In this document: positions 5,428 through 59,676 of the stretch, piece after piece
Layout of the letters: each line of letters begins with the position of its first letter
How positions within the stretch are numbered: the first letter of the stretch is position 1
From: Antedon mediterranea
Lineage: Eukaryota; Animalia; Echinodermata
Assembly (NCBI RefSeq): GCF_964355755.1
Contig: NC_092672.1
Coordinates: 35,036,437-35,100,436, forward strand
Reading direction: 5' to 3'
DNA: 64,000 nt
Program-made: the position numbers and the translations under genes
The notes under the pieces: generated by a model
What the model saw: the letters and a program-made list of their open reading frames with translations, nothing else
The model's database searches: none
Told to the model about the DNA's origin: nothing

Positions 5428-5836
5428 AATCCAAAGGCAAATTACTGAAAAAAATGACAATGCTGTGGGTATCAGTGGCTGGATCTCAATGGAGATACAA
5501 AATAAAATAAGCACTGAAAAAATGACAATGTTGTGGGTATCAGAGGCTGGATCTCAATGGAGATACAAAATAAAATAAGCACTGAAAAAATGACAATGTT
5601 GTGGGTATCAGTGGCTGGATCTCAATGGAGATACAAAATAAAATAAGCACTGAAAAAATGACAATGTTGTGGGTATCAGAGGCTGGATCTCAATGGAGAT
5701 ACAAAATAAAATAAGCACTGAAAAAATGACAATGCTGTGGGTATCAGCATGGAGGTATAAAAATGGTATCAGTGGCTGGATCTCAATGGAGATACAAAAT
5801 AGAAGCGAAAAGCTAAATCAAAACAAAAAGTAAAAA
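5428..5836 (-). mobile_element. Same retroelement family, 5'-truncated copy with 68-bp unit variant, inserted in a MITE
   Basis: Units recur every 68 bp (5514, 5582, 5650, 5718); 13-bp direct repeat GTGCCCATATATA at 5415-5427 and 5837-5849. Confidence 0.82.
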
Positions 5837-6819: not shown

Positions 6820-9800
6820 TCATTGCATGTCGTCTTCGTCTTTGTTAACGGCTTTTGCTGCTTGTTGCGGCATTTGTTCCGGGTTGGACAGGATGGATGT
6901 TGTCCTGCCAAGCAAGGTGAGTGATGATAGTACAGCTTTAAAAAAAATTAAATAGATATTATGAGAAAAACATTTATTAGGCTCTGTCTACACTATAAAA
7001 CTTTATGTGACAAAAAATGATATGCCCATATATGGACATGATGATGTCATATCACTACCATATTTGGGCACATCACAATTCATTTGTCAAACTAGTTTAG
7101 ACAGAGCCTTACTCTATTATATAAGATAGGCACAATAATTCTTATTAGCCTCAAGAGAGCCAACAGCTCATTCGAAAAGGCATAGGGTATAAACATTAAT
7201 AGAAATAATATTGTTCTTACTAGGCCTAAGGGCCAACAGTGAGCAGTGTTGATCAAGCCAGCTGAGCACAGTTCTCAAAAGCTCTTCCTTACTGGATGTT
7301 GACACTACAGTGTTGAAAGATTCAAATAATGGTCTAATGATAATGCTGAACTGTTTTATACAAGTTAAGGTACTAACTCTATAAAACCAGACACATGCAG
7401 GGTGGCAATGGCTGATCCAGGATTTTTTCTAAGGACCAAATTACTCCACTCCCAAAGACTTGTAATAAGACTTTGTTTATGTAGAGCATCTTGTGTATAT
7501 GTTTGTCTTGTGAACTTCTGAGGGTCACTAATGATCAGCAATAGCTGGATGGATCACCCTCATTAAATATGGTTAAGTTAAAAAAAAAAGGGGAAGGGCC
7601 TAAAAATGGTGAAATGAAGGGATGAGCTTAATTTGATGTTTTATCTTTTGCATTACAATTTGCTACATTTACGGGGCAGGGGATCCGCCCCTGGGGTCGA
7701 GGTTCCTATTGGTGAGGAGTTTAATTAATAATTGTTTATGTTTCACAACGCCAGAGGCCTCAAGCATTGGATGGTCACTTAGGGTCACTAAACCAGGGGC
7801 CTTAGGCCACTGTGTTACGCCGCTGAATGTGGCTTCACCCATTAACTGGCCTAGCTAGCTATAACTAAGATTGTCTTGAAAAGCAAACTTTCTTTATAAT
7901 TTATAATTCTATTGTAAAGGATACAATCCAAAATTTCCAGTTTTGTTTCGTTCTTTCTCTAACATAATCATCAAACATGTTCTGCATTTGATCAAATCTC
8001 TGCCTTGTAACTGGTACACCGCTTGCTGGTAACTGCGCTTGCGATTCACTAATTTACGGGGGAAAAAACAAATACAATGAATTACTAATCATAAGGATGG
8101 ATCCAAATGATGCATGACATGTGATACATAATCAACCAATCAAATGGCAAGGCTAATTTTTTTATTTCTTTATTTTGTAATCGATATTATAAATAAATTA
8201 AAAGATAGAAATAAAAGGTGGTTATACGCCAAGTTGCGGATAAGATAGAAATAAAACAACAACTAGTTATTCGCCAAGTTGCGATTAACTGATTTATACA
8301 CATTAAGACAAATGACAACAAAAAAGTTAATAAATTATTTCCACTTATGTCCTATAACAATTGTAAATAAACAAAATTTAAATAGCAAATGTTATATTAA
8401 AATTATCACTTACTTGATTGAGATGTTGAGGGCGGCAATTTCTTGTCTAAGTAACTCTATTTCTTTTTCGTGCTGTATCCGCTCCTGCTTTAACTTCTTC
8501 GTATAATCCACGCCCTTTTGTAACATGGAAGCCTTACTAATCTTAGAACTTGGATTTTGATTAATTGATGGTATTAACGAATGGAGCATATCAAAACCAG
8601 ACTGGAAAATAATAAAGTTAAATGTTAAATCTTCTATTTTGGTCCTTAAGCTTAAGTGGAAACTGAGGAAATTCGGATTAGGCCCTCCATAGACCCTATC
8701 AGATCAGCACACCGGGAGACGATTCTGTACTCTTTAAATAGTGTACCAAGTTCTTTAACATGCAATGCTAAGTACACGGGACCAACGGCTTTACATCCTA
8801 TCCGAAGGATGATGCAATGAGAGTAAAGCATCTTGCCTAAGAATGCAATTAGTATGGTACAGATAACCTTGTTTCAATAATAACAATTTATTCAGACTGC
8901 CTAAAGCAAAGTACAACAAAGAAACTATTGTTACAAAATCTGAACTCGGTTATAAAACTTCAATACATCAAAACCAGACTGCTATATAAAGATACTAATG
9001 GTAATAACATAATACTAGCTATTATTGTTCTCTTCAAACAGTTTCATTGTTTTTTTACTATCAAAAATGTTGGATGCACCCAAATATGTTAGTGATATGT
9101 CATTGTGTCCATATATGGGCACATCACATTTTTCTTGTCATATAAAGTGTGACTGATAGTGTAGACAGAGCTCTACATGTACATAATATGATCAACAAAC
9201 TGAATATAGACTATATTTAGGGACTTGCAGACAGTTTAAGTGACTCAAAGTCGTAGAGGTCATATGATTTTAAAGAACTGAACTAACTACTATATTTACT
9301 CACTAACCTTGATATTAAAACGTCTTTTCTGTTCTGCTGATATGTGTGTACATGATTTCTTGAAATCCTAAATAAAAAAGAAAATAAACATTAAAAAACA
9401 AATAAAACAAATATATTATATAAACTGATAAATAAATTCAAAGGCAAATTACTGAAAAAATGATAATGCTGTGGGTATCAATGGAAAACAATAAAGTAAA
9501 ATAACCAGAAAAATTTGCAGAGCTTTCATTCAACACAACATTAAAGCAAGTGAGAGTACTTAGATCGAAATAAATAAATATTTGTGATAATACAAATTTA
9601 AAGTAAATCAAAACTATATTCAACCTACCTTATCATCATCATCCCTGCTACGATGACCCTGAAAAAACAACATGTATTTTTTTATTTAAAAATATATCAT
9701 TAAAAACTCTAGCAATATCACAAAAACCAACTCTAAAGATATAGAAATATTTAGAATAAGAAATAATGTTGTGATGTTACTACAAACACTTGTGACATCA

Positions 9801-18800: not shown

Positions 18801-21800
18801 TTAATCGGATTTTGTCCTTGGTAGACAATTTTAAACCTCTAAACCACTTCCACTTTGGAGATACAATCCTTCCTCTGCAAAAAAATTGTTTTAAAAATCA
18901 TAAAATAGGCTATTAAAACTTCAAAAATCATTTTGCTTGCACAGTATACTGTTATTAGTTCACTACTGTATACTATTACTATGTACAGTCAAATCTCCCA
19001 ATGTGATGTGCCCAAATATGGTAGTGATATGCTTAAATATGGTAGTGATATGACATCGACATCATGTCCATATTTGGGTACATCACATTTTTTTGTCACA
19101 CAAAGTTTGATAGTGTAGAGAGAGCCTTACGCCCGTATTCTTAAACCGGACTTTAGTCGTAGTTCGAAGTTCGACTTGGAAAAGTCGTAGTTCGAGCTAT
19201 TACTTCAAATTCGATTCAAAAACGAAGTAGTCGAAGTTTGCAGTTCGACTTAATGAAGTCGAGCTTTTAGTCGAGTTGCACACGTCTGGGTAACAAAGGC
19301 TATACATTGGCCAATGACAAGAGAGTATTTGAGGAGCAGACGAAATTTTGCGCATTGATATCACTTTCCATTTCTTACAACACTTTTTACGCATCAGGAC
19401 TATATACATGAAAAATAATTTTAATCGTTAATTATTAGAACAATATCAGTATTAATTTAACAGTGAAGTATATTTGATTAACAACAAATAAAATCTTAAA
19501 AATATATTTAGGAACCATGGCGGTACGGTAACTTTTATATTTTCTAGGCCCCCAACAAAGTATGATCGCCACGAACCACGCACTTCATAGCGTGACAAGA
19601 AAGCGCTAGGCCCCCTAAACATTCCATCGCGTGGTGAATTGCCGCATCTCCCATTGTCGCTATGGCGTGACGTAGCTCAAGTCGGACTTGCGCGAAGAAA
19701 ATAATGTAATTTGTATACAGTTGTAAATAAAGATGATTTTCATTATTATAATTTATACCAATGTATATTTAATTAAGCTAATATAAATATAGATATTTCA
19801 TTCTTCAATATCTGGTCAATATAACAACTCAATGACTGTTACGTTTTTTATAAACATCGTTTAAAAACCATTTAGTCGACCATTTAGTCTGCCTCCTCCA
19901 GGACTAAAAAAATCGATCAAAATCCGTCTCGATTTAGTCGAGGTTGGCCTGATTTAGTCGGTGATTTAGTTGAAGTTCGGTTTATGAATTAAAATGACGT
20001 CATTTTTTTAGTTTTAGCTCGAACTATGACTAAAGTCCGGTTTAAGAATACGGGCGTTAAAATCACATTTGGAATATCAAAATTACGAGACATATTAGGC
20101 CAATCCCAATCTTCAAACTGCTTCCGTCATTAAATATTCATTTTAAAAAATAGATTATTAAATAGCTGAAAAAATGTTTTAAATATCATAGAAAGAGTGC
20201 AAGCAGCAGGTGAACTATTTTCTCAAAGTCATTGAGAAGGTCAAACAACATAGACAGGATCCCGTTAATAATGTCAGATCAGCGGTTCCGCTTCAACAGT
20301 TTCATTTTAATAACAACGATATTAAACAAGAAAAATAAAATAAAAGCAAATTGGAAAACACTGCAGTATGGTATAAATTAAACGTTTAGTAGGAACTTAT
20401 CAGCATTCAAAATTCAACTTAACAAATTAGGAAAATACAAATTAGGAATTTTTCCATAAATGCTAGTTGAAAATTTCAAAACTAGCTAATGTTTGCTGGT
20501 CGTAATCATTTAAAGACACCTTCCCTACGTTTTTTTTAGATTTCATTTAAGATCACAAACTATATTTAATGTAAAAATAATACTATATGGTCCTATTTCG
20601 TCTTTAAATGGTTAAAAATTTGAAAAATAAGTTGATTCTAATAATTATAGCGGCCCGCTATAAATCCCAAAATGCATTGCGCACGGATTGATATTTTTGT
20701 TTTTCTTCTGTAATTCACCCACTTTTAGATCGATCGTGAGGCCAAAACAAATGGAAGGCTCCTAACTTTCCAGCGAAAATACCAGGTTTTCCCCAATTTG
20801 TATCAACATAGTCTGGCCAAAATAGAAAGACAATGCAGCAACTATACGTCAGGCTAGGTATGTAGCTAGCGTACGATGTTCGTACGTTACCGATGTTTAC
20901 CAGCTAGGCCTACAAAACTAAGCCTAGCTAGGCTAGGCCTAAAGACCGTCCACGAGAGGTCATTGCCGCGAGCTACTTAGGTAGTGCATTGTTTCTCACT
21001 TTTTATCATAATTTACCATAAAACATACATTTTTAAGACAAGGAATGACCTGGTTTAATGTTTTTAAAGTAATATATATGTATTATTTTTACAAAACGTC
21101 ACAAATTGTAGGGAAGGTGTCTTTAAATATTAGTTACTTTTTAGTCTAGCAAAGTTGATAGTTATTAGTATGCAGCCTAGCAAAGGGCAGTGGCATACAG
21201 GAGTTTAGATGTTATATTTGCTGCACATTGTTAATTGGTCATTTTAAATGGTAGAATATACAAAAACAATGAATTATGAATTAATAATTAACAATAATAT
21301 ATAGGTGGATATTATTAAATGTTAAAGCTTGTTTAATGGCTAAAAGGTCAGTAAACAATGGGTCATGGTCAGCAGAGGGTCATGGTCAACATAGATTATG
21401 AAATAAAAAACACAGGAAACTACAAAAGCTTAGATGTCTGCACTAGTTATACACTTGTCCAAGCCTACTTATGTATCCAAAGCAGGGAACATTTTCGCCA
21501 GTGTAGCGTAGCAAAAAGCTATACAAAACAACCTTATTGCTACACATTTTGAAAATTGTGTAGCAAAAAATACAATACAAAACTATGTTTCTGGACTTAA
21601 AAATCAGTTTGATTAGCAATATTGCTAAACAAAATTTTTAAATGAAAATTTTCCCTGCAAAGAGGTCACTAGCATGTCATAGTGGTTACAATATTCAGGA
21701 TGTACATAGGTGATGCAACCAGCACTCCCCTTTATTTATACTTGCCACATTAAAAAACATTATTTGTAATCTTAAAATAGTTATGTTGTTGCATGTAGAC

Positions 21801-24388
21801 TAATTTTAAAAATTATTCTTTTATTTTATAGTCCAATAATTTATCGGATAAATTACTGTCAAAATGGAGTACCAAAAGTGTGCTGAACATTTTTTATCTG
21901 TGTGACTATATTTCCCCCAACCCACTCTATGCCTGACCCACCCTCCCAACACGAAATTAAACTCAAAACCTTTTTTACTTTACTTCCTCATATATTATTA
22001 CTTAGATTAATCTATTCACCCCAACCTACTGTAGAATCTTCTGATAGCAATAATAATGTTAAAATATTTATGAGGAAATCCTTTCCAAACAATGAAAATT
22101 GTATAAGGATCCAAAATGCGAGTTTTGTGAACAGATTTTAACAAACATGATTAAAGCTAATTTTCCACTAGGCGAATCCAACGTTTCGAAGAGAAATAAA
22201 TCGCCTACTCTCTTTCCACTACATGAGCGAATAGCTGCGACGTTCATGTTCCTCGCGTGGTTGCTGAGCATTTCGATTCGCATGAGTGCTCATGAAAGTG
22301 TCATAGCTCATTTCCTGAGCTCTGATTGGTTCCGCAATGTTTCGCTTCGAAAAAGTAGAAACAATTCGAACTAGTAAATTTCGCTGAAGCGAAAAATCAA
22401 AGGAACTAGAATTCGACGAAGAAGGCAGTATGACAGACAGAAACGCGAATACGCATGTGCATAGCATGACGCTTTCGATTCGCGCGAACAAATTCACCTA
22501 GTGGAAAATAGGCTTTAGCACCAGTCAGTGTTAAGCACAACAATGTTTACATTCATAACATTCAATCTGTGAATTGCGACTGTAGAATAACTATCTCTAC
22601 TCACAATATCATACAGTACTTTACAGTATGTGGAATGGTGATAGAATATTCACATGAGTGTGGGTTGTTGTTGTGATCTAATATTTTGGTAATTGTCTTT
22701 AGCTTAGGTGGATGTACAGCAGTAGTGCTACTGTAGTAGTAGTCACAATTTAATCCAGGGGGTATGAGAAATAATCTAAGGCATGGAAAATAAGAAATAA
22801 CAATCAGGTTGTACCACAAAAAAGCTGGGTTAATCTTGTATAACATTTTTACCTAAAAATTGTTTTTTTTTACGTTCTAGTTAGAATTGCCAAATAGCTC
22901 TATAAATATAGTCCGAGTCTTCAAGAGTTAAGCGCAATTAAATACACCAGAAAAAGAAATGAATTAGAATTTATCTGCTCAAATTAATATTGATTATTAT
23001 TGTTGAATTTTTTACTTTGTACGCTGTTTGCAGAATTATTCAGTCGTTGGCTGTCTTCTCTTTGTACTATTTATGTGTTTCTATGAATACCTACATATTA
23101 TCGCAAATAGCTTGATTACGCGAAGAACGTCATTGCACAATGCATGATAGGAAGGGTTTGTATGCGTAAATACAAACAACAAATCATATCCATACGCATC
23201 ATGACGCTTGCTCCCAATCGCTTCCCACTGATTCCCACCATGCATCATGCACACTATTTATTTGCCATAATCCTTATTGTATACAGTTATGTTGGCAAAA
23301 GATGATCGGGACCACGGAAGATCGGGCCCAAGACGATCGGGCCCAGAAAACGTAGTCCCGATCGTCTTCAGCGTTGGGCCCGATCGTCCAGTGTTTTCAG
23401 AACTACGTTGGGCCCGATCGTCTTACAAGTTGGTCCCGATCGTCTTAGCATTGGGCCCGATAGTCTTTTGTGTTATATAAAATAATTTCAATAATTTCCA
23501 CATTTCATCATTTTTCATTCCTAGTGCTAATGTCAACGTGCTTTTCTTGTGTAAATTAAGATTTTAATTGAAAATATTATATCTGATTTTATCCTAATTT
23601 TCCCCTAATTAACACTACTGGTTTTAAGAATTTCTTTACCAATACTCTCGATTTATGAATAAATGTGATTGATTTTGATTGTTATTATTGTGTTGTTTGT
23701 ATTCGCGTATTTATTTGTAAACATTTTCTGAGAATGTTTTGGGCCGATCATCTGGGCCCGATCGTCTCTGGTCTCGATCGTCTCACGATTTGGGCCCGAT
23801 CGTCTTGAAGTGAGCCCGATCGTCTGGGCCAGATCGCCTCTGGGCCTGATCGTCTTTCACAGTTGATGGGCCCGATCATGTCACGATTTGGGTCCGATCG
23901 TCTGGGCCCGATCGTCCGTGGTCCCGTGGTCGTCTAATAACCATGTTGGCCCTCTATTGTATATCAGCCTTTTATAATAAATAGCACATAGGCCTATCAT
24001 ATTATTATATAATACTTCATAATAGCAATTAATATTTCGTATCTTACCCATTGTAGGCAAGACTCAGACATTCAAACAACTTTGAAAATGAAGACTCTAT
24101 CTCGTTGGTAGAACAATTTTTATTCTCCCCAAACGAATAACTTGTTGATGGATCTTTATTAGCCGAAACAAAATCGAATCCAACTTTGTCTTTTTTCTTG
24201 CCTCGATGAGGGTCACTGACCATAAAATGCCCGGAGTGGATTTGCTCGTCGCAGCCAGGTTTTGGCCCTGAACTGCTTCTTGATCGCAATTTCATCCGTT
24301 CTTTTTCCTTATAGTTTTGATCTTCCTCTGACCCTTGCATAAGTTGCAGCTTGCCTTTGGCATTTAATACATCATCCCGAGCCATCAT
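6820..24388 (-). CDS. MLXIP: Mondo family bHLH-ZIP glucose-sensing transcription factor (MLXIP/MondoA and MLXIPL/ChREBP co-orthologue), 16 coding exons
   Basis: Exons in transcript order: 24388-24048, 18874-18768, 17278-17205, 16655-16524, 16036-15892, 14121-14017, 13257-13187, 12677-11534, 11191-11082, 10637-10568, 9972-9908, 9658-9629, 9367-9308, 8601-8414, 8048-7925, 7350-7221, 6935-6820 (17 segments listed including the 30-nt microexon 9658-9629); all phases are compatible. Motifs: IHSGHFMVS, SKLFECLSLAY, SPKWKWFRGLKL..KDKIRLNNAIWREWHMQ, LEGKYWKR, DTLFTSL..PFAFPNPKE, NADMIQPGLVQLQP, bHLH THISAEQKRRFNIK, C-terminal NWKFWIFS...WLDQHCSL. Confidence 0.95.
7351..7924 (-). other. U12-type (minor spliceosome) GT-AG intron in the Mondo gene
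   Basis: Minus-strand donor GTATCCTTT (7924-7916) matches the U12 5' consensus; branch site CCTTAAC (7370-7364) lies about 12 nt before the AG at 7352-7351. Confidence 0.9.
9434..9527 (-). mobile_element. Degenerate copy of the same retroelement family in a Mondo intron
   Basis: Minus strand reads GAAAGCTCTGCAAATTTTTCTGGTT...GATACCCACAGCATT...CAGTAATTTGCCTTTGAATT. Confidence 0.65.
17988..18709. mobile_element. Element with about 165-bp inverted arms around an AT-rich core
   Basis: 17988-18154 is the reverse complement of 18543-18709 with few mismatches; a degenerate arm occurs at about 45160-45275. Confidence 0.75.
19130..20056. mobile_element. Non-autonomous DNA transposon, 927 bp, PIF/Harbinger-like
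   Basis: About 38-bp TIR CGCCCGTATTCTTAAACCGGACTTTAGTCGTAGTTCGA at both ends; TTA at 19127-19129 and 20057-20059; no long ORF. Confidence 0.85.
20514..21122. mobile_element. Kolobok-like non-autonomous DNA transposon
   Basis: TTAA|AGACACCTTCCCTAC ... GTAGGGAAGGTGTCT|TTAA; TTAA duplication with purine-purine start. Confidence 0.8.
22155..22514. mobile_element. 360-bp MITE, family B, second copy
   Basis: Collinear with 6262-6621 over its full length, same TIRs. Confidence 0.8.
23294..23942. mobile_element. Unclassified DNA-transposon-like element with GGGCCCGATCGTCT subterminal repeats
   Basis: Many GGGCCCGATCGTC[TC] units at both ends, inverted terminal blocks, flanked by a direct repeat ATGTT(GGC) at 23289 and 23943. 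Confidence 0.65.
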
Positions 24389-24855
24389 TTGCACAATTAA
24401 GCTGATTTTCAATAGAAAAACAAATAGTTTAGCTATCCAAATCCAGTATCTAAATTCGCCATTTCAGCACCTACGAAGTGTTTTTCATCCACAGTCCACA
24501 CATACAACACACGAATTGCAAAAACATGAAAACAAGATGATCGACTGATGATGACGTCACGTTGAACAACAGGGGGCGACAAACAACTTAATGAAGAGAT
24601 CATAAAAAAGAGAATTTATTTTGGTGTTTTTTGTACAAGTATTCAAACTTCCCAAAAAAGGAATTTTATTTTTATTTTAATGATAAAAAGGGATCAAAAG
24701 GCTCTATTCGACTTTATTTTCTATATTTCCCCCTTTATTAAATCATACAATTAATCTGTTTTTTCGTCGCGTCGACGATCGGATAGCGCGCGCGTGTGGA
24801 AAAAAAATTGTACGGAAATTAATTATAGAGGGCAGTTTTTACAAACGAAACAAAG
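24389..24855. promoter_or_regulatory. Shared divergent promoter region of Mondo/MLXIP and MED19 with a full CRE palindrome
   Basis: Start codons at 24388 (-) and 24856 (+) are 467 bp apart; TGACGTCA at 24552-24559; CpG-rich patch at about 24765-24795. Confidence 0.6.
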
Positions 24856-27100
24856 ATGTTGGCCGATATGATGATGGATGATGTTGACGATGGAAGACAA
24901 ATGCAGTCTTCTTCTCTTATTTTTGATGACTTGCCGACAAAAAGCCCAGAATCTATAAATGCAATATCTCCTACATCCATGTCATCAGTCGATAATGATA
25001 GATTGACGGAGAATCCATTCTATCTTATGAAGAAATTACCAGGTAGTTTTCCCTTTTGAGCTAGGCCAGTCGTCATTGACAAGATAGTGTAACTGCTATT
25101 TGTGTTCGCGGTCTAAATTGATTTATTCCCTGTGTCATTTGAACTTCCCATACACACTTTTTGGTCTAGGCCTAATATATAGTCTTAAATAGAAATTACC
25201 GAAACTAATGTTTTTAACAGTACTAGCCTTTGATAATTAGTACTTTATCTAGTTTTAATGCTTTTTTTTTTATAGAGAAGGCTGAGGTTACTGGCGAGAC
25301 AAACCTTATCAACCACTACGCGCTTGACCGAACGTATCAGAAGTTTTCGAGTAAGAAAGTAAAAGAACAACTTAGCACTTTTCTACCATTGATACCTGGT
25401 AAGCTGAAGGTGTTGTAATGCATTTGATTATATATTCTTCTTTCTGATGACAACTACTGTTATGTGTTTGATTCTTTTCAGAATTATTTATATGAATATG
25501 ATTTAATACCCTACATATTTTTTCTTTATTGTGATTGTTGAGTTATATATTTTTAAGACTGTTGCATGATACATAACCATAACATGTATTTTGTATTGCA
25601 CTTGCAATATACTTGCACTGATGAAGAGCTAGTGTTGCCCGAAAGCTCTGCAAATTTGTCTGGTTGTTTTACTTTTATAAGGTTTATTGCAAATAGCGTG
25701 CGCGACACATGGTGGAAAGGATTTGGGAGCAAACGTCATGACACGCGTACATACAACAACAAATCTTATTTTATTTTGTATCTCCATTAAGATCCAGCCA
25801 CTGATACCCATGTCATTTTTTAGTAATTTGCCTTTGGATTTATATTTTGTTTATTTTAAGTATTTGAATGTTTTTTAGGAAATATTGATACGGTTGGTTC
25901 TCAAGACAACAGTAGCCTCCAACTGTTGGTTGACAAACCTCCAATTGGAGGCAAGGAAATTCTTCAACTAAGTGGTAGTGCATTAGCAAGTTTCAAGCTA
26001 CATCCAGGATCGGTATGACATGTTTCTATTACTTCAGTTTACTTTACTCAGTCTTACTAACATAAACGCTGTCTACACTGTCAAGCTAGTTTGACAAAAA
26101 AAATAGAGCTGATTAATTATGAACGATATTAATTCAAATATTCAACATTTGTACAAAAAATATAAATAATAAATAAATTGTGAAAATGGTCTGGTTCAAA
26201 CCACCTCTGTCTACTGTACACTATCAAACTTGTTTGACAAAAAAAGTGTGACATGCCCAAATAAGGTAGTGATATGCCCAAATATGGTAATGATATACCC
26301 ATATTGTAGTGATATGACATCATCATGTCCATATACATATAGGCACATCACATTTGTTGTCACATAATCTGTTGAAAATGAAATGAATTTGCTTTTGTTA
26401 TTAGATACCAGATCAATACAAGTTATTACATCACCAAGCTCCAAAAAAACACAAGCATAGAAGACACAAAAGAGAACATCAGCCCCTGGAAGCAGGACAG
26501 GGATTTACTCAAGGTAATGCACAACCCCCGGGAGAGGTTCATACGCATCAAACAGCGAGTACAAACTCGCCAATTACAGGATGGATAAACTATTTTATAA
26601 TTTATCATGCTTATAAACTAAGTATAATTTGAGGCTTAGGGAGTGGAGTTGAAAGTGTAATGAGTTACAACTCTGGCACTACGTCAGGATTGAACCCTAA
26701 ACCTTTGAAGACGCAGGATTTTGATAATCAAATATTTATGTTTTAACCATTTGAATCGTAGGTGGTGAGGCACAAAGTGATGAACCAAAGAAAAAGAAAG
26801 TGAAGAAACACGAAGATCCAGACAGAAAGAAAAAGAAGAAAGATAAAAAGAAAAAAAAGGTAAGAACAATGTTAGGTAAATCATCTTTCTTACAAAAATT
26901 AAAATTATGCATACATTTCAGACATGACACAAGTGGGAAATTGCATTTTTATTTTTTAATTATTATTTTAAATTATGTATACACAGTTCAAACATGACGC
27001 AAGTAAAATTGCATTTTTATTTTTTTAGAATAAACACAGTCCAGACCACACTGGTGGTGTAGCACCTCCACATGAAGCTGTAGGACCTGGACGGCCATGA
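24856..27100 (+). CDS. MED19: Mediator of RNA polymerase II transcription subunit 19, 6 exons
   Basis: Exons 24856-25042, 25276-25398, 25879-26012, 26405-26513, 26762-26859, 27029-27100 join in frame: PFYLMKKLP-EKAEVTGETNLINHYAL...KKVKEQLSTFLPLIPG-NID...DNSSLQLLVDKPPIGGKE...FKLHPGS-IPDQYKL, then a Lys-rich tail and HSPDH. Confidence 0.95.
25613..25653 (+). ncRNA. Minimal type I hammerhead ribozyme motif
   Basis: TTGCA-CTGATGA-A-GAGC-TAGTGTT-GCCC-GAAA-GC-TC^TGCAA: stem I TTGCA/TGCAA, core CUGAUGA and GAAA, stem II with one A-C mismatch, palindromic AGCU stem III, predicted cleavage after 25648. Confidence 0.72.
25613..25842 (+). mobile_element. Same retroelement family, short copy with complete hammerhead motif in MED19 intron 2
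   Basis: Hammerhead at 25613-25653, about 100 bp of unrelated sequence, one partial 48-bp unit (25778-25815) and the shared 3' end AGTAATTTGCCTTTGGATT. Confidence 0.75.
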
Positions 27101-28334: not shown

Positions 28335-28912
28335 ATCCTACACACAATTATTAACACAAAGCAATTTGTGTGTAATTCAGGATCCCTACACACAATTATT
28401 AATATAAAGCAATTTGTGTGTAATTCAGGATCCCTACACACAATTATTTATATAAAGCAATTTGTGTGTAATTCAGGATCCCTACACACAATTATTAATA
28501 TAAAGCAATTTGTGTTTAATTCAGGATCCCTACACACAATTATTAATATAAAGCAATTTGTGTGTAATTCAGGATCCCTACACACAATTATTAATATAAA
28601 GCAATTTGTGTGTAATTCAGGATCCCTACACACAATTATTAATATAAAGCAATTTGTGTGTAATTCAGGATCCCTACACACAATTATTAATATAAAGCAA
28701 TTTGTGTGTAATTCAGGATCCCTACACACAATTATTAATATAAAGCAATTTGTGTGTAATTCAGGATCCCTACACACAATTATTAATATAAAGCAATTTG
28801 TGTGTAATTCAGGATCCCTACACACAATTATTAATATAAAGCAATTTGTGTGTAATTCAGGATCCCTACACACAATTATTAATATAAAGCAATTTGTGTG
28901 TAATTCAGGATC
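28335..28912. repeat. Tandem array, 48-bp unit, about 12 copies
   Basis: Unit GGATCCCTACACACAATTATTAATATAAAGCAATTTGTGTGTAATTCA, almost invariant. Confidence 0.95.
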
Positions 28913-29351: not shown

Positions 29352-32300
29352 TTATGTAACCGAAACTTTATCATAAGGCATAAAGCCAGAGTTTCCTAGC
29401 ATCCGAACGGAAACTCTACCGCTAGGACGAACGCAGACCCATGTGATACTGCCGTGGTTTAAACTAAATCGTAACCAAGCTTCTGGAGGGAGTTGTAGAG
29501 CTCTGAAATGAAGAAAAAAAAATTGGTTAAACAGTTTTAAAAATAAGGTAAAATAATGTGTCCAGACTCTAAACTGCACATCACATGACAAAGGCGACAA
29601 ACACAAATAGTGTGAGCAATGCATGATGGGATGGAATTGGGAGCAATAGCGCCACCACCAGTCTATATAAATTTTTAATTATACTGGTGGCAGTATTGCT
29701 CCAAATTCCTTCCCATCATGCATCGCTCATGCTATTTGTGTTTGTGTTTGTCGCCAAACAATGTACTATATCTACCTGCATACAAAGTAACGTATAACAT
29801 TCGCATGGCATACTAAAAGCTCTACACTATCATTCATCTGTTCAGGACTTGCTCGATGAAAATACTTGCAAAATGCAGCCTCAATCCGAGCACCATCTTG
29901 GAAGAACTGCTGAAAAATAAAAGACAACATTTCCAAAAAACAAAGGTTCTGGTTATCAGACGCTTTGAGCATCAGGCCCAGACAATCGTTGCCATAAAAA
30001 AAAAACTTTAATCGCTAAACAATCAATCTCCTAAATAATCAAATTAATCACAAAATAAACTAAACTTAATAATCTCTTCCAATCAGCAAAATCACCTGTA
30101 AATAATCTAGAATCAAAGAAGAATATGTTCTTGTCAAGAGGGGCCAGAAGCATTAAATGAGAATTAAATAAAATCCAGGCAGACTTTAAAAACACAGATC
30201 AACAAATCCTTGAACATTTATCATTTTTAAATCAAATATGTCATTATTAAATGAAGTTAAAAGGAGTGAAAACCAACCGATGCTTCAGGTCTCCAGTGTC
30301 CTGCAGGGGGTTCAGGGGGAATTGGCGCCCCTTCTCGTAGAAAGTCACATGATTTACGAGGCAAATCAGGAAAATGCTTAGCAATTATATCAGCTGTTTC
30401 GATTGCTCTGGTCATTGTGGAATTGTGAATAAGGCTAATGTCCAGTTTCATGTCTTTCAAACGAAGACCCGTCAGATGTGCTTGTTCACGACCTGAAAGT
30501 AATCAAAAGTTCTCTAAATTTAAAAAAAGTAAAAATTAAATAAATAAAAATTGATGTATATATGTACTTACACTATAAAGTACTGTACATATATACATCA
30601 ATTTATATATAAACCCAAAGGCAAAATATTGAAAAAATGACAATGCTGTGGGTATCAGTGGCTGGATCTCAATGGAGATACAAAATGACAATGCTGTGGG
30701 TATCAGTGGCTGGATCTCAATGGAGATACAAAATGACAATGCTGTGGGTATCAGTGGCTGGATCTCAATGGAGATACCAAATGACAATGCTGTGGGTATC
30801 AGTGGCTGGATCTCAATGGAGATACAAAATGACAATGCTGTGGGTATCAGTGGCTGGATCTCAATGGAGATACAAAATGACAATGCTGTGGGTATCAGTG
30901 GCTGGATCTCAATGGAGATACAAAATGACAATGCTGTGGGTATCAGTGGCTGGATCTCAATGGAGATACAAAATGACAATGCTGTGGGTATCAGTGGCTG
31001 GATCTCAATGGAGATACAAAATGACAATGCTGTGGGTATCAGTGGCTGGATCTCAATGGAGATACAAAATGACAAAGCTGTGGGTATCAGTGGCTGGATC
31101 TCAATGGAGATACAAAATGACAATGCTGTGGGTATCAGTGGCTGGATCTCAATGGAGATACAAAATGACAATGCTGTGGGTATCAGTGGCTGGATCTCAA
31201 TGGAGATACAAAATGACAATGCTGTGGGTATCAGTGGCTGGATCTCAATGGAGATACAAAAATGACAATGCTGTGGGTATCAGTGGCTGGATCTCAATGG
31301 AGATACAAAAATGACAATGCTGTGGGTATCAGTGGCTGGATCTCAATGGAGATACAAAATGACAATGCTGTGGGTATCAGTGGCTGGATCTCAATGGAGA
31401 TACAAAATGACAATGCTGTGGGTATCAGTGGCTGGATCTCAATGGAGATACAAAAATGACAATGCTGTGGGTATCAGTGGCTGGATCTCAATGGAGATAC
31501 AAAATGACAATGCTGTGGGTATCAGTGGCTGGATCTCAATGGAGATACAAAATGACAATGCTGTGGGTATCAGTGGCTGGATCTCAATGGAGATACAAAA
31601 TGACAATGCTGTGGGTATCAGTGGCTGGATCTCAATGGAGATACAAAATGACAATGCTGTGGGTATCAGTGGCTGGATCTCAATGGAGATACAAAATGAC
31701 AATGCTGTGGGTATCAGTGGCTGGATCTCAATGGAGATACAAAATGACAATGCTGTGGGTATCAGTGGCTGGATCTCAATGGAGATACAAAATGACAATG
31801 CTGTGGGTATCAGTGGCTGGATCTCAATGGAGATACAAAGAAAAAAGCGAAAAGCTAAATCTAAACGATAAATTAAAACAGCCAGAAAAGTTAGCAATTT
31901 ATCAATTTATATATATACACTATAAATAAAGTAGCTAAGCTAATTTTTTATTTTCTTAAAAATAAAAAATGTTAATATTACTAAAAGATACCTAGAAGAG
32001 TCAACGTCCTATCTTTGTCATCTTCGCGACCTATATTGTATTGTCCATGACGAATTAGGATCAAATGGCGTGTGGCTGTTGGCTTCGCTTCTGCTAGCTT
32101 CTGATTATATATTTCATTGTCGGTTTCTTTCTTTGGTGGTTTTACTGAACTTTTTGGATCCCTTCTAAAAAATAAAACAAACAAAAGAGAACATTATTAA
32201 ATAAATTATTTAAATAATATAGGCCTAGGCCTATTTATTTTATATAAATTCTAATTAGCTATAAATTATTTATTATTAATATTCATAATATAGGTAGTGA

Positions 32301-32565: not shown

Positions 32566-33313
32566 GTTTAAATGCAGTTTTTTTAAAGAAAGTTTCGATC
32601 AAGTTCGTTTACAAGGAGGCAGCCATTTTATATATTTCAGGCATGTCCAAAGAAATGTTATTTTGAAATATTAAATGTATAATTTTTAATAAATCTAGAT
32701 CACATAAAGTATTTAAATAAAATTACTGCTTAAAAATAGATTATTTTATTGTTGGAGATATTGTGTATAGTATTAATATGATGACTTAAAACTTTGAATT
32801 TTGAACTAGTAGCCGCCTCCTATCTGTTTTCTGCTAAATAAAAACCAAAATAAAGTTTCAACACGTGAAAGATATTTCGGGGAACAACGTATCTGTATTT
32901 TTCGACGGACTCCTTTTTCGACAAGGTGCCGTAATTGCACAGTATTTACAAAATACACTTACGGAGAATAGTGTAAATTAATAATTTACATCAAATAAAT
33001 ATAAGGCTGGCTAGCTAGGCAGAAACATAGTTGTTTAGGACACACACGTCACGGTTGTTGCATAATAATGTTAGTGTGTCGTAAAATGAATATATGCATA
33101 GGCGGCCTAGGTTAAAAATTATTATTATGAAAAGTGTTTTGTGTGTATAACTAGGCGTAGTGTATTCTACCTGAGTTGTAGTTATCGTATGAAATTAATA
33201 AATAGGGTTTGGCTGTAGCAGGTATATAAACTAATATATAGTAATATGTATTCTAAGCAAATATAATAAATTACACTTTTACTTACAGAAGAAGAAATTG
33301 ACAACTGTTTGCC
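32566..33313. promoter_or_regulatory. Divergent promoter and 5' UTR region shared by PGAM5 and HGH1
   Basis: Head-to-head start codons 748 bp apart; YY1-like GCCATTTT at about 32622; probable HGH1 5' UTR intron acceptor TTACAG ending at 33288. Confidence 0.5.
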
Positions 33314-35170
33314 ATGGAGACTGAGGAAATATTCCAATTTCTATCTCCATCTGCGAGAATTGATGTGAAGGCATTTGCTTTGGATTACGTCCTTGGTTTA
33401 ACCAGCACAACAGAGGGAAAGGCGCTATTGTCATCTGATAAACGATATATCGAATCAATATTCAGTTTAACAAAGGACTCCACATCATCGATTGTCAAAG
33501 ATTCCTACATAGCGCTCATAGGCTTATCAGCAGATGATGCGTTTGCAAATACGATGATTACGGACTATTGTATCGTTCCTTCGCTTCTGGAGTATATCGT
33601 TAATGAAGAAAGTGATCATGTTGATACAGTCTGCATGTTACTTGCAAATTTAAGTCGCAATTCATTTTGCTGTCGGAAATTAATTGAGCTTATAGACTCG
33701 GAAGAGTGCTCTGTTAAACTATCGAAAATTGTTGAAGTTTTCTGTCAGAAAAAATTTAACAAGAAGGAGAATAATTTAGACCATCTTGGGCTGTTTTTGT
33801 CGAACATTACTCAGCTGAGAGAGGGACGAGTGTTTGTGTTGGATAGGACACAGTGCGTAGTTCAACGTCTGTTACCGTATACTGAGTATGACGCATCAGA
33901 AATGAGAAAAGGTGGTGTAATTGGAGCCTTGCGGAATTGTTGTTTTGAAACTGGTGCGTAGTATTGTTGTAGGACATTGGTCAGATCAAGAAAATTTAAC
34001 AAGCTGAGCTCCGGAGGGTTTATGTGTGACTGCGACACAATCAGTTCCACACCCCTTAACAGAAACTGCACGCCATGGATAATATGTACATAGTACAGTA
34101 CTGTTGGTATTTGTCGCAGCCAGACATAAGATCAAAGGACTGTTACGAGTTCCTATTTTGGCAAGGCGAGCTCAGTGTCCAGTTGTTAGATTGCATTGGT
34201 CAGATGTATGAATGACTTGGGTCAAATCTGAATCAGAGAGATGACCATGATAGCAGTCACAATGCCCAAGAATCTTTGTACCTATGTAGATGATAATTAA
34301 CTTTTAAAATATGGTTTCATTATTTGTAGATAATTTATTTTTGTTTACAGATGACCATGAGTGGCTGTTGAGTGATAAAGTCGAAATCCTTCCTCATCTC
34401 CTCCTGCCATTGGCTGGACCAGAAGAGCTGACCGAGGAAGACATGGAGGGTATGCCAGATGATCTTCAGTACCTCGGCGACGATAAAAAAAGAGAACCCA
34501 ATCCAAATATCAGAAAGATGTTAATAGAATCAATATGCCAGGTATAATGTAATTTGTAGATTGATTTTTTTCCCAACTTTTATTACCAAAGAAAAAGAGT
34601 GTTTTGGCATAATGGTATCATACTAGCATATGAGAGTGCCACATTGCTTATATCCATAAGCTCTGTCTACACTATCAAACTAGTTTGACAAAAAAAGTAT
34701 GATGTGCCCAAGCCCAAATATGTTAGTGATATGCCCAAATATGTTAGTGATATGACATCATCATGTCCTTATATGGCCACATCACATAAAATTTGATAGT
34801 GTGGACAGGGCTTCATTTTTAGGATTTGAACACAAAGATGTTGGTCCTGTGCCCGATAAAAAACAATTTGGTATAAAAATACAGTATTTTAATAATTGTT
34901 AAAAACATTTTTTTTCCACAGCTATGTTCTACAAAAGAAGGAAGAAAGATTGTGAAAGACAAAAGAACATATGTAATAATAAGAGAGCTGCATAAAACAG
35001 AGAATGACAAGGAGGTGTGTGTTGCAATTGAACATTTGATACAGTTATTGATTGGAGATGAGCCAGAGAAAGGCATGGAAAACCTAAAGACGGTTGAAAT
35101 ACCGCCAGAAGTTGATGACAAGCTTAATAAAATTATGCTGCAACATGACAAATTAGAACATAACAAATAA
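33314..35170 (+). CDS. HGH1: Protein HGH1 homolog (FAM203, eEF2 chaperone), 3 exons
   Basis: Exons 33314-33953, 34351-34541, 34922-35170 in frame. Motifs CMLLANLSR, SNITQLREGR, RKGGVIGALRNCCFE, ILPHLLLPLAGPEEL..EDMEGMPDDLQYL..DKKRE, YVIIRELHK, LIQLLIGDEPE. Confidence 0.95.
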
Positions 35171-38509: not shown

Positions 38510-38866
38510 AAACCATTGATTGGTTCGAAAACATTGATTAGTTCAAAACTATTGATTGGTTTGAAACCACTGACTGGTTCGAAACCACTGACTGGTTCGA
38601 AACCATTGATTAGTTCGAAACCATTGATTGGTCTGAAACCATTAATTAGTTTGAAACCATTGATTGGTCTGAAACCATTGATTAGTTCGAAACCATTGAT
38701 TGGTCTGAAACCATTGATTAGTCAAAAACCATTGATTGGTCTGAAACCATTGATTAGTCAAAAACCATTGATTGGTCTGAAACCATTGATTAGTCAAAAA
38801 CCATTGATTGGTTTGAAACCATTGATATAGTTTGAAAACTGGTGATTAGTTCGAAACCATTGATTT
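38510..38866. repeat. Tandem array, 18-bp unit, about 19 copies
   Basis: AAACCATTGATT[GA]GT[CT][TCA][GA] units, often alternating as a 36-bp dimer. Confidence 0.9.
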
Positions 38867-38971: not shown

Positions 38972-41900
38972 CTATATTTCATGTTTTTTGTAGTGCTCCA
39001 TGAAAATATCTTCCCGGCTTCCTCTGTCAAAATATGCGCGGCGGTACGTTGACGAATCATCCTGGAATTGATATCCGTAAGTCGCCTCAGAGATCGGCGA
39101 TTTGCAGATGAGAAATAAACGCTACAACAAGTAAAATATTATTAGTTATAATTAAACAGGTTATAATGTAGATTTTGGAAGTTAGACGTTACTGTTACAT
39201 TATTCATTATACAAAATTAAAAATGTACCTGCTAGTTCATAATTTAGAATTTGTTAATGTTAACTACTAACAAAATTAAAATCAACGTTTGAAATATTCC
39301 AAGTAAAGCATAAATATAAATTAAGCTTAATAGTTCTAAGACAGTATTTGAAATTCGGCTAGAAGAAAAATAATTGAAAAATTCGAAAAAAAAAAATCCA
39401 CAAATGTAATTCTTACTTCCATAAATGAACCCTCTGCAGTTGCAAACGCATAGACAATACCAATTGGTATCCAAATCATTGAAAGTAAAGCTATAAACCA
39501 GCCTAGGAACTCGGCCCAGTCAGGATAGATATAGTCATCGTAGGTCACTACTTCATACTGTATAAAGCTGAACACAAAGATAGCCTAGAGAGCCAGAAAA
39601 TAACAATAAGATTATCAGTCAATTCAATTTAAACTTTTTAAGGTTTATAAACCAAACTCATATAGCATTTAATATACAGTAGAATATACATATATATATT
39701 TAAACTGATGAAGGGCTAGTGCACTGATGAAGGGCTAGTGCACTGATGAAGGGCTAGTGCACTGATGAAGAGCTAGTGTTGCCCGAAAGCTCTGCTAACT
39801 TTTCTGGCTGTTTACTTTATCGTTTTGATTTAGCTTTTCACTTTTTATTTTTGTATCTCCATTGAGATCCAGCCACTGATACCCACAACATTGTCATTTT
39901 TTCAGTGCTTATTTTATTTTGTATCACTATTGAGATCCAGCCACTGATACCCACAGCATTGTCATTTTTTCAGTGCTTATTTTTTTTTGTATGTCCATTG
40001 AGATCCAGCCACTGATACCCACAACATTGTCATTTTGTATCTCCATTGAGATCCAGCCACTGATACCCACAACATTGTCATTTTGTATCTCCATTGAGAT
40101 CCAGCCACTGATACCCACAACATTGTCATTTTGTATCTCCATTGAGATCCAGCCACTGATACCCACAACATTGTCATTTTGTATCTCCATTGAGATCCAG
40201 CCACTGATACCCACAACATTGTCATTTTGTATCTCCATTGAGATCCAGCCACTGATACCCACAGCATTGTCATTTTGTATCTCCATTAAGATCCAGCCAC
40301 TGATACCCACAGCATTGTCATTTTGTATCTCCATTGAGATCCAGCCACTGATACCCACAACATTGTCATTTTGTATCTCCATTGAGATCCAGCCACTGAT
40401 ACCCACAGCATTGTCATTTTGTATCACCATTGAGATCCAGCCACTGATACCCACAGCATTGTCATTTTGTATCACCATTGAGATCCAGCCACTGATACCC
40501 ACAGCATTGTCATTTTGTATCTCCATTGAGATCCAGCCACTGATACCCACAGCATTGTCATTTTGTATCACCATTGAGATCCAGCCACTGATACCCACAG
40601 CATTGTCATTTTGTATCACCATTGAGATCCAGCCACTGATACCCACAGCATTGTCATTTTGTATCACCATTGAGATCCAGCCACTGATACCCACAGCATT
40701 GTCATTTTGTATCTCCATTGAGATCCAGCCACTGATACCCACAGCATTGTCATTTTGTATCTCCATTGAGATCCAGCCACTGATACCCACAGCATTGTCA
40801 TTTTGTATCACCATTGAGATCCAGCCACTGATACCCACAGCATTGTCATTTTGTATCACCATTGAGATCCAGCCACTGATACCCACAGCATTGTCATTTT
40901 GTATCACCATTGAGATCCAGCCACTGATACCCACAGCATTGTCATTTTGTATCTCCATTGAGATCCAGCCACTGATACCCACAGCATTGTCATTTTGTAT
41001 CTCCATTGAGATCCAGCCACTGATACCCATAGCATTGTCATTTTGTATCTCCATTGAGATCCAGCCTCTGATACCCACAACATTGTCATTTTGTATCTCC
41101 ATTGAGATCCAGCCACTGATACCCACAGCATTGTCATTTTGTATCTCCATTGAGATCCAGCCACTGATACCCACAGCATTGTCATTTTGTATCTCCATTG
41201 AGATCCAGCCACTGATACCCACAGCATTGTCATTTTTTTCAGTAATTTGCCTTTGGATTTATATATATTTAAACTTATATTTGTTTCATGTGAAAGTGTT
41301 CCTTTAATAAGGGGTGTCAAAAAGGATCCCAAAACCAAAACATGACAAATTCAAAGAGATTATCTCAATTTAGGCAAGCCACTCCCCCAAGGCCTCTTTG
41401 TTAGACTTCCAAGTAGAGTATTAAAGAGGATAACCACCAAGTACATACGGTCAACATGCTTTTTCCTTTCAAATCCCTCTTATTTGGAAGTTGTTACTAT
41501 TTCTGTTCGCAATTAACCAAATCTACTTTCCTTTAAGTCGACTTAAAAACCTTTTTTCAGAATTTATATTGACCTTGCTCTATTCTCACACAGCACCTTT
41601 GATACATTTTTTAATTGATGCTATTTCTGTTTTTATTAATTTATTATTAAACAAATGTAAATAATAAAATAAACTCCTGTCTACATTATCAAACTTTAAG
41701 TGACAAAAAAATGTTGATGTCATATCACTGCCATATTTGGCCATATCACTACCATATTTGTGCACATCACACTTTTTTTGTCAAACTACTTTGATAGTGT
41801 AGACAGAGCTTAACACTTACAAATATGAGAATAGGAGAAATGACAAGCCAGCAGGATACAAAGTAGATGTTTGGAGTAGAAGTGGTCATTTCCTCAACAT

Positions 41901-44900
41901 TCCTTCTTAGTCTTGTAGCACCTACAAAAGAAAGAGAAACTGAAATGCTAACTCTAGGGACTTTTAACCAGTCCAATTGGCCAATCCAATTGACCAGTCC
42001 TATTGGCCAATCCAATTGAGTCATCTCTACATACAGTATAAAACTTTGTCTACCCTATCAAACTTTATGTGACAAAATATGATGTGCCCAAATATGGACA
42101 TGTTGATGTCATATCACTACTATATTTAATCATGCCACTACCATATATGGGCACATCACACTATTTTTTGTCAAACTAGTTTGATAGTGTAGACAGAGCT
42201 TAACACAAAAACTGGTAGAGAAGAAGTCGATCTTATAAAAATCAATAAAATATTACACTGAAATAAAATATTTACCATAGAGCCAGCAGACAGCAATGAC
42301 TTCAGCTATAGCAATGAAGAAGATAGAAACAACAGCTACATACCAGTCAATGATTTGAAAGTAGTACATGCCACCCTGAAATAATTAACATTTACAGTAT
42401 AGTGAATTAACATTGCAATTGTAGCTTGGTGGTCAACATATTTTCTTAAGATTGGTTCACAGTAGGAAGTAAGCACAATGCAAGCGAGTTTGCCATTAAC
42501 AAGCCTACAGTTCAGATAATCCATTGCTTGTGATTCGTTTGCGTTGTGTTTGCGTTGCGTCCTAGTGGGAACCACGTTTTACAACCCTTATTAAGTGGTA
42601 TTGGAATGTTCTGTTTTTAGTATAAAGATTTCAATTCAATTTAGATTCAATGCCCATATGATGAAACTTGATAAAACTTTATGTGACAACAAAATGTGAT
42701 GTGCCCATATATGGACATAATGATATCACTACCATATTTGGGCATATCACTACCGTATTTGGGTACATCACACTCTATTTGTCAAACTAGTTTGATAGTG
42801 TAGACAGAGTGTGGGTTCTCTGTATGAGCATAATATGTAGGAAGTAAGCAACATACCATGTTGACTGTTTATATGGCGTATATAAGACCTATTTTAGAAT
42901 ATGCTGCCCCTGTTTGGCATGGCGCTATCACTAAGGACATGTCCAAGTCTATTGAAAAGGTACAAAAGAGAGCATTGCGTATCATGCTAGGTAACAACTA
43001 TTTGTGCTATGATCATGCATTGTCTGTTACTGGTTTACCGACTCTTGTAGAGAGAAGAAACAAACTTGTGTTGTCTTTCGGGGAAGGCTTACTTCCCCCT
43101 CTTCATAAGCCAGCTCGGTCTCTCAGAGTCAACCGCTTTCTAGAAGTACCTCATTGTAAAACCAGCAGACTTAGGTCGTCTCCAGTTCCCACCATGGTGG
43201 ATATAATTAATAGGCACCACTAGCTCTTTTTTAGATATGTAATAAGTGAAGGTTTTAAGGTTTTTTATTCATGTATGTTTTTAATTGTATGGTACGATAT
43301 CTAATTTTATTAAGATGTTTCTATTTTTATAGCAATTTTAACTAATTTTTAGTCATTTGTAATACATTTCATTTCAGTCCTTGACTGTCGTTTTGTAATA
43401 TATTTTTATATACCGAATAAATAAATAAATAAAAAAATGTACAAACAACACCAGAGTGAAATTATTGGCCAGTACACAATTGTGTGTTATTGAATATGAA
43501 AGAGTCTACAAACCTGAAAAGTGCATGGAATACCACAGGCAAAGGTGAACAGACAAATGTACAAGACGAGGACCTCCTTACGGTTAAAATACAAAGGTTT
43601 CAGTTTGGGAAACCCGTCCATAAGAGTTGTTATGACAACTTCAACCATTGCAAACTAGAAAAGAAAGTTGAAATACAATATAATAACCTCTCCTTTTGGC
43701 CACACCCACTAATGGGAGACATTCCTACTGGAAAAACTATGACAAGAATCTGTATACAATATGAATTCTAATCACTTTTTTGCTGTGGTTGATTTACCCT
43801 TTGTTTTTGTATGACTATTTCATGTTTAAATGTTTTTTTGTATAAATTGTATTTACTTAATGTATTGATTTTCTATGTTAATGTTTTGGTGTTTTTGTGT
43901 AGTTTTTATACAGTTTTTATGTAAATGCAATACTTTCACCTTCTGCTGCTTTTTGTATCTATATGTTTTTTTAAACCGAAAAAAAAAAATAAATATAGGT
44001 TTCTTAAAAAGTAGTTTCACATACAGTACATACAAAAAATGGTAATTATTACCTGGCTGTCAATGCCTAAACAGATAAGCATTATGAAGAACAAGACGGA
44101 CCATAACTGAGGCACAGGCATGGCAGAAAATGCTGCTGGATACACAGCAAACACAAGTCCTGGGCCTAGACGAAATATAAACAAAAGGAAACCATTTATT
44201 TATATTTTGAACACCTTATAAGGTCAATTTTGTAAATATGTATCACATTTTTTGTATAATCTTTATGATAAGCATTTTTGGCTTTGTGAAGATTTCATCA
44301 GTCAGGAAACTCAGGAATGCAAACTTATTCCCATGATAAGATTTAGGTACAACCCAACAGGTATACAGGTATATATAATAATAATCCAAAATATGTGTGT
44401 CAATAGGGTCTGTATGGTACTTTTATTTAATTCATTTCATTTATTTTTCATAATATACAAAGTAAAACAAGATCAAAACTTTAAGATTAAAATGAAATAG
44501 TATAACTTGGAAGAATGTCTTTTTAGGACAAAATGTCACTTTAAAGGTCACCAGTGAAACAAACAAAAGGCATTTGAATGGCTTTTAATAACAAATAAAA
44601 AGTACTTACCACTTGCAACAACGTTATCAACATCCTCGTTTTGGATAAACGCTAGATGACCTATCACCGAGAAGATTGCGCATGAGGCAAAGAGACTTGT
44701 AAAAGCATTGATGCCCGATATCAGCATTGTATCTCTGTAAAAACAAACACAATTAATCATTACTACGAAACATTTGTATGAACCATGGTGGACTTAGTTC
44801 AAACAAAAAATGACAAACTAAGCTTTTCAATATAGCTAATGGTTTACTGGGAAATAATGAGATAAAGCTATGGTTATGAACAAGAAACAAGATAAAAAAT

Positions 44901-58939: not shown

Positions 58940-59676
58940 TGATGACCGACATGGTTACGGCTGACAGCCATGGTTAGGGATGACCGAAATGGTTAGGGCT
59001 GACCGACATGGTTAGGGCTGACTGACATAGTTAGGGCTGACCGACGTGGTAAGGGCTGACCGAAATGGTTATGGCTGAAAGCCATGGTTAGGGATGACCG
59101 ACATGGTTAGGGATGACCGAAATGGTTAGGGCTAACTGACATGGTTAGGGCTGACCGACGTGGTAAGGGCTGACATGGTTAGGGATGACTGACATGGTTA
59201 GGGCTGACCGAAATGGTTAGGGCTGACTGACATGGTTAGGGCTGACCGACATGGTTAGGGATGACCGACATGGTTAGGGATGACCGAAATGGTTAGGGCT
59301 GACTGACATGGTTAGGGATGACCGACATGGTTAGCGATGACCGACATGGTTAGGGATGACCGAAATGGTTATGGCTGACAGCCATGGTTAGGGATGACCG
59401 ACATGGTTAGGGATGACCGAAATGGTTATGGCTGACAGCCATGGTTAGGGATGACCGACATGGTTAGGGATGACCGACATGGTTAGGGATGACCGAAATG
59501 GTTAGGGCTGACCGACATGGTTAGGGCTGACCGACGTGGTAAGGGCTGACCGACATGGTTAGGGCTGACTGACATGGTTAGGGATGACCGACATGGTTAC
59601 GACTGACCGCCATGGTTAGGGCTGACATGGTTAGGGATGACAGACATGGTTACGGCTGACTGACATGGTTAGGGTT
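58940..59676. repeat. Tandem array, 19-bp unit containing TTAGGG, about 38 copies
   Basis: Consensus GACCGA[CA]ATGGTTAGGG[CA]T. Confidence 0.93.

Follow-up and report, generated by a model that had tools for sequence, protein, structure and literature searches.

Does the insertion found in the PGAM5 intron of Antedon mediterranea begin at the predicted cut of a hammerhead ribozyme, and does it thereby provide genomic evidence that the ribozyme was active in vivo? The function of the minimal hammerheads of Penelope-like elements (PLEs) is called unclear in the accessible part of a published account (PMC8557442). Ribozyme activity could be read cheaply from a genome if insertion junctions peaked at the cut; this insertion, termed copy B, does not supply such a peak on its own. 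If a minority of the templates is indeed cleaved, stubs that start at the cut would document ribozyme activity and could be counted in any assembly. We analysed copy B together with the rest of the window, that is, the whole stretch of 64,000 nucleotides. Copy B and its surroundings are made up of the following features.

30493..31991, minus strand: PGAM5 intron hosting copy B, 1499 nt, GT..AG
30612..31896, minus strand: copy B, 1285 nt, the part of a Penelope-type repeat that lies downstream of the hammerhead, containing a 48-nt array and no ribozyme core, sense to PGAM5
30597..30611: 15-bp target duplication of copy B, at the 3' end of the element
31901..31915: 15-bp target duplication of copy B, at the element's 5' end
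31895..31910, minus strand: junction patch of copy B, a tandem target 8-mer that includes the four extra bases at 31897-31900 and two bases (31896-31895) overlapping element positions +1/+2
30634..31839, minus strand: 48-nt tandem array in copy B, 25 units, the unit being without a hammerhead

The GT..AG intron running from 31991 to 30493 links the RHG exon to the downstream PGAM5 exon with the frame open, and the exon downstream of it matches human PGAM5 (E 3e-23). Together, the exon match and the open-frame splice join bear out the placement of copy B in a PGAM5 intron. As originally described, 31901-31915 and 30597-30611 form a perfect 15-bp duplication, which extends no further on either side, and four further bases at 31897-31900 precede the start of the insertion. 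We also confirmed that the letters at 39785-39810, in the related copy A, are GAAAGCTCTGCTAACTTTTCTGGCTG, and that the minus strand from 31896 has the same 18 bases as copy A from TGC onward, after GAAAGCTC. Copies A and B agree at 25 of the 27 positions aligned after the cut, and there are several base differences within their unique parts. Copy B is a stub, 1.3 kb long, of a repeat that bears the hammerhead and is likely a pLTR, the end repeat of a Penelope-like element. The units of its array are nearly identical, three being 49 nt long and two carrying one substitution.

A perfect 20-bp inverted repeat (30548-30567 / 30585-30604) overlaps the left target duplication of copy B, and an 11-bp direct match links 30569 and 31916, around the insertion. 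Judging from these letters, the target site may have carried a hairpin or an older duplication beforehand.

The window contains five copies of the family, whose 3' ends all lie at one point, 131 nt beyond the predicted cut (arrays counted once). The features of the four other copies are listed below, with negative and positive numbers giving positions upstream and downstream of the cut.

39707..41259, plus strand: copy A, the closest relative of copy B, begins at the CUGAUGA box (-32..-29), with a 3-nt target overlap
39691-39706 / 41260-41275: target duplication of copy A, 16 bp
39759..39795, plus strand: hammerhead motif of copy A (minimal type I), with the cut predicted to fall between 39792 and 39793, 3 bp of stem I visible and an A.C mismatch in helix II
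25613..25840, plus strand: copy C, intact core with a stem I of 5 bp, 5' end about -36 or further upstream, in sense orientation within a Med19 intron
24856-26994, plus strand: Med19 gene, which hosts copy C in an intron
9437..9536, minus strand: copy D, decayed, extends across the cut at least as far as -8 and probably further
5428..5836, minus strand: copy E, starts at about +19, with a 68-nt array
5849-5837 / 5427-5415: target duplication of copy E, 13 bp

A profile search of the window outside the arrays of copies A, B and E found no sixth copy, all other matches having E values above 2.6. Copy A is laid out as four 19-nt repeats of the ribozyme front, followed by 68- and 48-nt arrays. No target duplication was found for copy C and no clear one for copy D, whose likeness to copy C further upstream is weak (6 of 300 shuffles were as good). 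Thus, the 5' junctions mapped by target duplications are three only, at -32..-29 for copy A, +1..+3 for copy B and about +19 for copy E. The duplications themselves, of 13, 15 and 16 bp, are TA-rich.

Intact cores, with a CUGAUGA box at 39762 in copy A and at 25618 in copy C, a GAAA box and an NUH cut triplet, have their predicted cuts after 39792 and after 25648, respectively. In both cores the CUGAUGA box is followed by one extra A, a G-C closed helix II region and then GAAA-G-C-U-C; the extra base lies between positions 9 and 10.1, there is a G10.1-C11.1 pair, and 15.2-16.2 is palindromic. The predicted position of the cut is sound, since the 5-bp stem I of copy C directly abuts it, which has a chance of about 0.002. 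In copy A, whose upstream arm is cut off, only 3 bp of stem I are visible, and the source of copy B has no visible stem I. The second pair of helix II is an A.C mismatch in copy C and in the last repeat of copy A. Searching the window with 4227 Rfam families, the hammerhead families included, gave no match at the gathering score.

Minimal type I hammerheads (min-HHRs) have been described from metazoans, in the pLTRs of Penelope-like elements (Cervera and De la Pena 2014, PMC4209133). In the accessible part of that study they share with the motif described here the CUGAUGA box, the extra base before helix II, the G10.1-C11.1 pair, and GAAA followed by a palindromic 15.2-16.2 (GC) and UC. Also alike are the 5-bp helix I, here in copy C, and the occurrence mostly as dispersed single motifs from truncated elements. 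Unlike in the published min-HHRs, however, helix II is short and has the A.C mismatch in both intact cores, and no full element was seen in the window.

Misfolding is predicted for both visible cores. In the best predicted fold of cores A and C, the start of helix II pairs with the GAAAGCUC box, and the resulting hairpin hides the core and ends at +1. The active fold is worse than the best one by 2.4 kcal/mol in copy C, by 4.8 kcal/mol in copy A with its last repeat and by 11 kcal/mol when the third repeat of copy A is taken as the core. Helix II is not stably paired in either intact core, its predicted pair probabilities being <=0.02. At its 5' end, copy A carries the front half of the ribozyme as four 19-nt repeats (39704-39778), which are not all alike: in the first three, a variant sequence allows full pairing of helix II (GGGC, 4 G-C pairs), and the last has the mismatched form also found in copy C. 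The fully pairing fold of the upstream repeats is not favoured either. In co-folded dimers the competing hairpin was kept and the active fold was absent, a true double hammerhead having been estimated in parts only.

This hairpin offers one way to account for copy B without any cleavage. Reverse transcriptase could have stalled at its foot in uncut RNA, where the 3' base of the AGAGCU/AGCUCU pairing is +1 and the junction would fall at +1..+2. Of the folds predicted for copies A and C, this pairing has the lowest energy, and the same holds for their co-folded dimers. However, the fold is weak (about -8 kcal/mol) and no better than those of shuffled sequences (z 0.22 and -0.55), and copies A, C and D were copied through it. 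Moreover, a stall of this kind needs the GAGC variant, and the source sequence of copy B is not visible at this point. We judge a stall at the hairpin to be rather improbable.

The junction of copy B had been described as starting exactly at the predicted cut. The interval within which the junction lies does include the cut, but it is resolved only to +1..+3, being blurred by a repeat of the target. The four extra bases and the first two bases of the element complete a repeat of the neighbouring target 8-mer, so that ATAAATTG stands there in tandem (31910-31903 and 31902-31895 on the minus strand). The first two bases can thus be of target or of element origin, which leaves the junction at +1 to +3. 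Perfect 8-nt tandem repeats occupy only 5 of the 64000 window positions, and since the patch repeats a target 8-mer in such a rare arrangement, we infer that it was copied from the target. That the four extra bases match the target by chance has a probability of 0.013, and we rejected the reading of them as untemplated additions. Read from the letters, the two bases taken as the start of the element belong to the patch or represent microhomology. The base at -1 of the junction does not match the element, and between -32 and +20 the element has seven TG sites. The junction cuts both ways equally: a cDNA that ended at the cut could have been re-primed via the two bases, or the target could have annealed at any TG of a longer cDNA.

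End-joining repair, too, leaves templated patches with short microhomology. The junction could accordingly stem from a later loss of 5' sequence from a longer insertion, or from a host repair event that is unrelated to the end of the cDNA. Such an origin is hard to reconcile with the perfect 15-bp duplication, which directly adjoins the patch, and with the almost unmutated array, which makes copy B look young; we consider it very improbable.

How well the five copies fit the cut can be put into numbers. One copy (B) fits it, three (A, C and D) run across the site uncut, and the start of copy E lies downstream, at about +19. For 3-5 copies and a range of 52-140 nt, the probability of at least one match to the cut is 0.06-0.26 with a 3-nt junction and 0.02-0.09 with a 1-nt junction, figures that leave out the number of windows and landmarks scanned, which further weakens the match. 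A cleaved fraction of 10-30% is favoured over none by 1.4-4.2 to 1, with up to about 4 at 20%. At a cleaved fraction of 50% the ratio to none is 0.6-1.5 to 1, and 90% is excluded.

These numbers bear on the explanation in which the template was the 3' product of hammerhead self-cleavage, formed in a dimer via the AGCU palindrome, and in which reverse transcriptase ran off the 5'-OH end at +1 and re-primed on the target. It fits the +1..+3 interval, which includes the cut, the base at -1, which is unlike the element, the core, which follows the min-HHR pattern (PMC4209133), and the likelihood ratio of up to about 4 at a cleaved fraction of 20%. However, with one of five copies at the cut, a fraction of 0.9 excluded and one of 0.5 not favoured, it is not the main route. 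In addition, the active fold lies 2-11 kcal/mol above the best one in monomers and was not recovered in co-folded dimers, the activity of min-HHRs in vitro is low in the accessible part of the cited work (PMC4209133), and ribozyme sequence upstream of copy B is not visible. We regard this origin of copy B as possible but doubtful. Equally tentative is the more general proposal that hammerhead-cut RNA serves Penelope-type elements in vivo as a second, minority template beside uncut RNA. As it stands, the insertion does not amount to genomic evidence of ribozyme activity in vivo: there is one blurred junction in five copies, for which two cleavage-free explanations exist.

The non-random aspect of the 5' ends is a looser one. 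None is located from +20 up to the 3' end, and those that are mapped, three in number, fall within about 50 nt. If truncation were memoryless, such clustering would have a joint P <=0.006 for each of six mean lengths from 50 to 1500 nt (post hoc, five copies), and arrays of 48/68 nt that already formed part of the template would make the clustering even stronger. That the 5' ends cluster around the ribozyme suggests that the template RNA begins near it. Since the 5' ends are clustered and the 3' end is common, copying from an internal site to an RNA 5' end near the front edge of the ribozyme is the simplest reading.

The explanation we prefer, with a probability of roughly 0.52, is that copy B arose by reverse transcription of uncut RNA that stopped early, that its junction carries a target-templated patch, and that the match to the cut is incidental. 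The TA-rich target would have been nicked on both strands 15 nt apart, in line with the perfect 15-bp duplication. The starting point of copying would be fixed, at the common 3' end 131 nt beyond the predicted cut; that copying starts internally is proposed by analogy with the Poseidon element PAc (PMC11167929). From there it would head for the RNA 5' end, which the clustering puts at or just upstream of the front edge of the ribozyme. Copying ended variably in the last stretch, at -32..-29, at +1..+3 and at about +19, and in copy B this would be a few tens of bases short of the RNA start. Finally, the end of the cDNA would be joined via 2-3 nt of microhomology, in copy B after an 8-nt slip on the target to which the repeated 8-mer points. 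Copy A was also joined by microhomology (3 nt).

An early stop on uncut RNA is favoured by copies A, C and D, which span the uncut site, together with the start of copy E at +19, by the match of the extra bases to the target, and by the predicted misfolding of both visible cores. It also has a precedent in the LINE Nimb-2, where, in the accessible part of the report, extra bases or microhomology mark 95% of the 5'-truncated inserts and direct joining 82% of the full-length ones (PMC4245944). Counting against an early stop are the junction interval, which includes the cut, and the favoured cleaved fraction of 10-30%. The 2-nt overlap with +1/+2 counts against it as well, since it is also expected from a run-off cDNA re-primed on the target.

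Further evidence comes from PAc, the Poseidon element of Anolis, whose reverse transcription initiates internally (Frangieh et al. 2024, PMC11167929). As far as the accessible part of that study goes, mutants of the hammerhead core leave the insertion products unchanged in vitro, so that cleavage is dispensable, which favours an early stop on uncut RNA for copy B. According to the same part, no RNA-seq reads began or ended at the cut, but the ribozyme did cut when the protein was added, which lends some support to a cleaved template (PMC11167929). The family resembles PAc in its AT-rich targets and in the fixed internal 3' end past the hammerhead (~85-92 nt in PAc, as subtracted from published figures, vs 131 nt here), and uncut RNA is a working template in PAc. 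Unlike in PAc, the ribozyme here contains no ORF start, the element has internal arrays of 48/68 nt, and copies A, B and E have clean 13-16-bp duplications without an inverted arm (PMC11167929).

The reasoning behind a cleaved template is that of R2 elements with 5' HDV-like ribozymes, in which the ribozyme cut sets the template's 5' end. In the accessible part of the R2 study (Eickbush et al. 2013, PMC3774820), extra bases that resemble the target, as well as microhomology, are seen at junctions from ribozyme-cut templates. R2 thus provides a precedent for cleavage, and the extra bases of copy B, being of this type, count against an early stop. However, R2 has another ribozyme and belongs to another element class, and the R2 case is built on cleavage assays and on many junctions from each species, compared to the one junction here (PMC3774820). 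Among PLEs, we found no report of junctions at the hammerhead cut in the literature, as represented by titles and abstracts and with few subscription papers covered; the accessible part of PMC4209133 gives no analysis of insertion junctions.

In being non-coding and AT-rich, with a type I hammerhead and long target duplications, the family is also like the metazoan non-LTR retrozymes, for which, as for the family here, mobilisation by a PLE protein is likely, according to the accessible parts of two sources (PMC7229834; bioRxiv 10.64898/2026.07.22.740005). That it is itself a retrozyme is ruled out, as the 48- and 68-nt units are without a hammerhead core and there is no cut-to-cut repeat unit.

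The family has traits of EN+ Penelope-like elements, namely a hammerhead upstream of a fixed 3' end, AT/TA-rich targets and heavy 5' truncation. Copies A, B and E are single stubs, in which neither a partial tandem or inverted pLTR arrangement nor a 30-40-bp tail was seen; both are described as frequent but not obligatory in the accessible part of PMC8557442. Five short motif patterns for an ORF with reverse transcriptase and GIY-YIG domains had no match in the six frames of the window. Because no such gene of the family was seen there, its Penelope membership and the start of the RNA are only inferred from sequence. Short motifs of the family were found at one locus in metagenome contigs, with a prokaryotic coding match, at three loci in prokaryote genomes, with the likeness confined to the motif, and at none in viral contigs. 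None of these loci is a genuine further copy. The core pattern occurred at 41 loci in viral contigs, none of which had stem I plus a contiguous stem II of at least 3 bp, a measure by which the cores of the window themselves score one contiguous stem II pair.

Taken together, copy B is a real but ordinary Penelope-type stub, whose coincidence with the cut is suggestive, single and blurred. With five copies in 64 kb the family is dense, and it is sharp-ended, so that the Antedon mediterranea genome suits a count of junctions.

Some further observations concern the copies themselves. Tandem arrays lie inside copy B (30634-31839), copy A (39843-41236) and copy E (5444-5747). The 48-nt unit is common to A (26 units) and B (25 units), with differing variant patterns, and the 68-nt unit is found in A and E. 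The arrays could have been inherited from the source elements, arisen by telomerase-like slippage of the reverse transcriptase or expanded after insertion. In the interior of copy C (25680-25762), about 80 nt of unrelated, more GC-rich sequence replace part of the element. Selection that purges sense-oriented intact ribozymes from introns was also considered, and is ruled out by copy C, whose intact core lies sense in the Med19 intron. Copy E sits inside a member of a dense family of short dispersed repeats, MITE-like by appearance and with 21-nt internal tandem units, which occurs at many sites, e.g. 1299, 2550, 3628, 10094, 17439, 42041 and 60858.

Tandem arrays unrelated to the hammerhead family are found at 28337-28912 (48 nt), 49306-49693 (61 nt), 58943-59678 (19 nt) and 38510-38865 (18 nt), their flanks having weak 9-10-bp matches or none. 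The window also contains the following neighbouring features.

8410-24463, minus strand: HLH gene
33302-35170, plus strand: DUF383 gene
39336-56350, minus strand: sodium:neurotransmitter symporter gene
42834-43223, plus strand: 129-aa frame, no Pfam match

We take the HLH gene to be MondoA/MLXIP-like, and the DUF383 gene is presumably HGH1-like. The 129-aa frame, we assume, resembles the C-terminal part of the ORF of a CR1/L2-type LINE.
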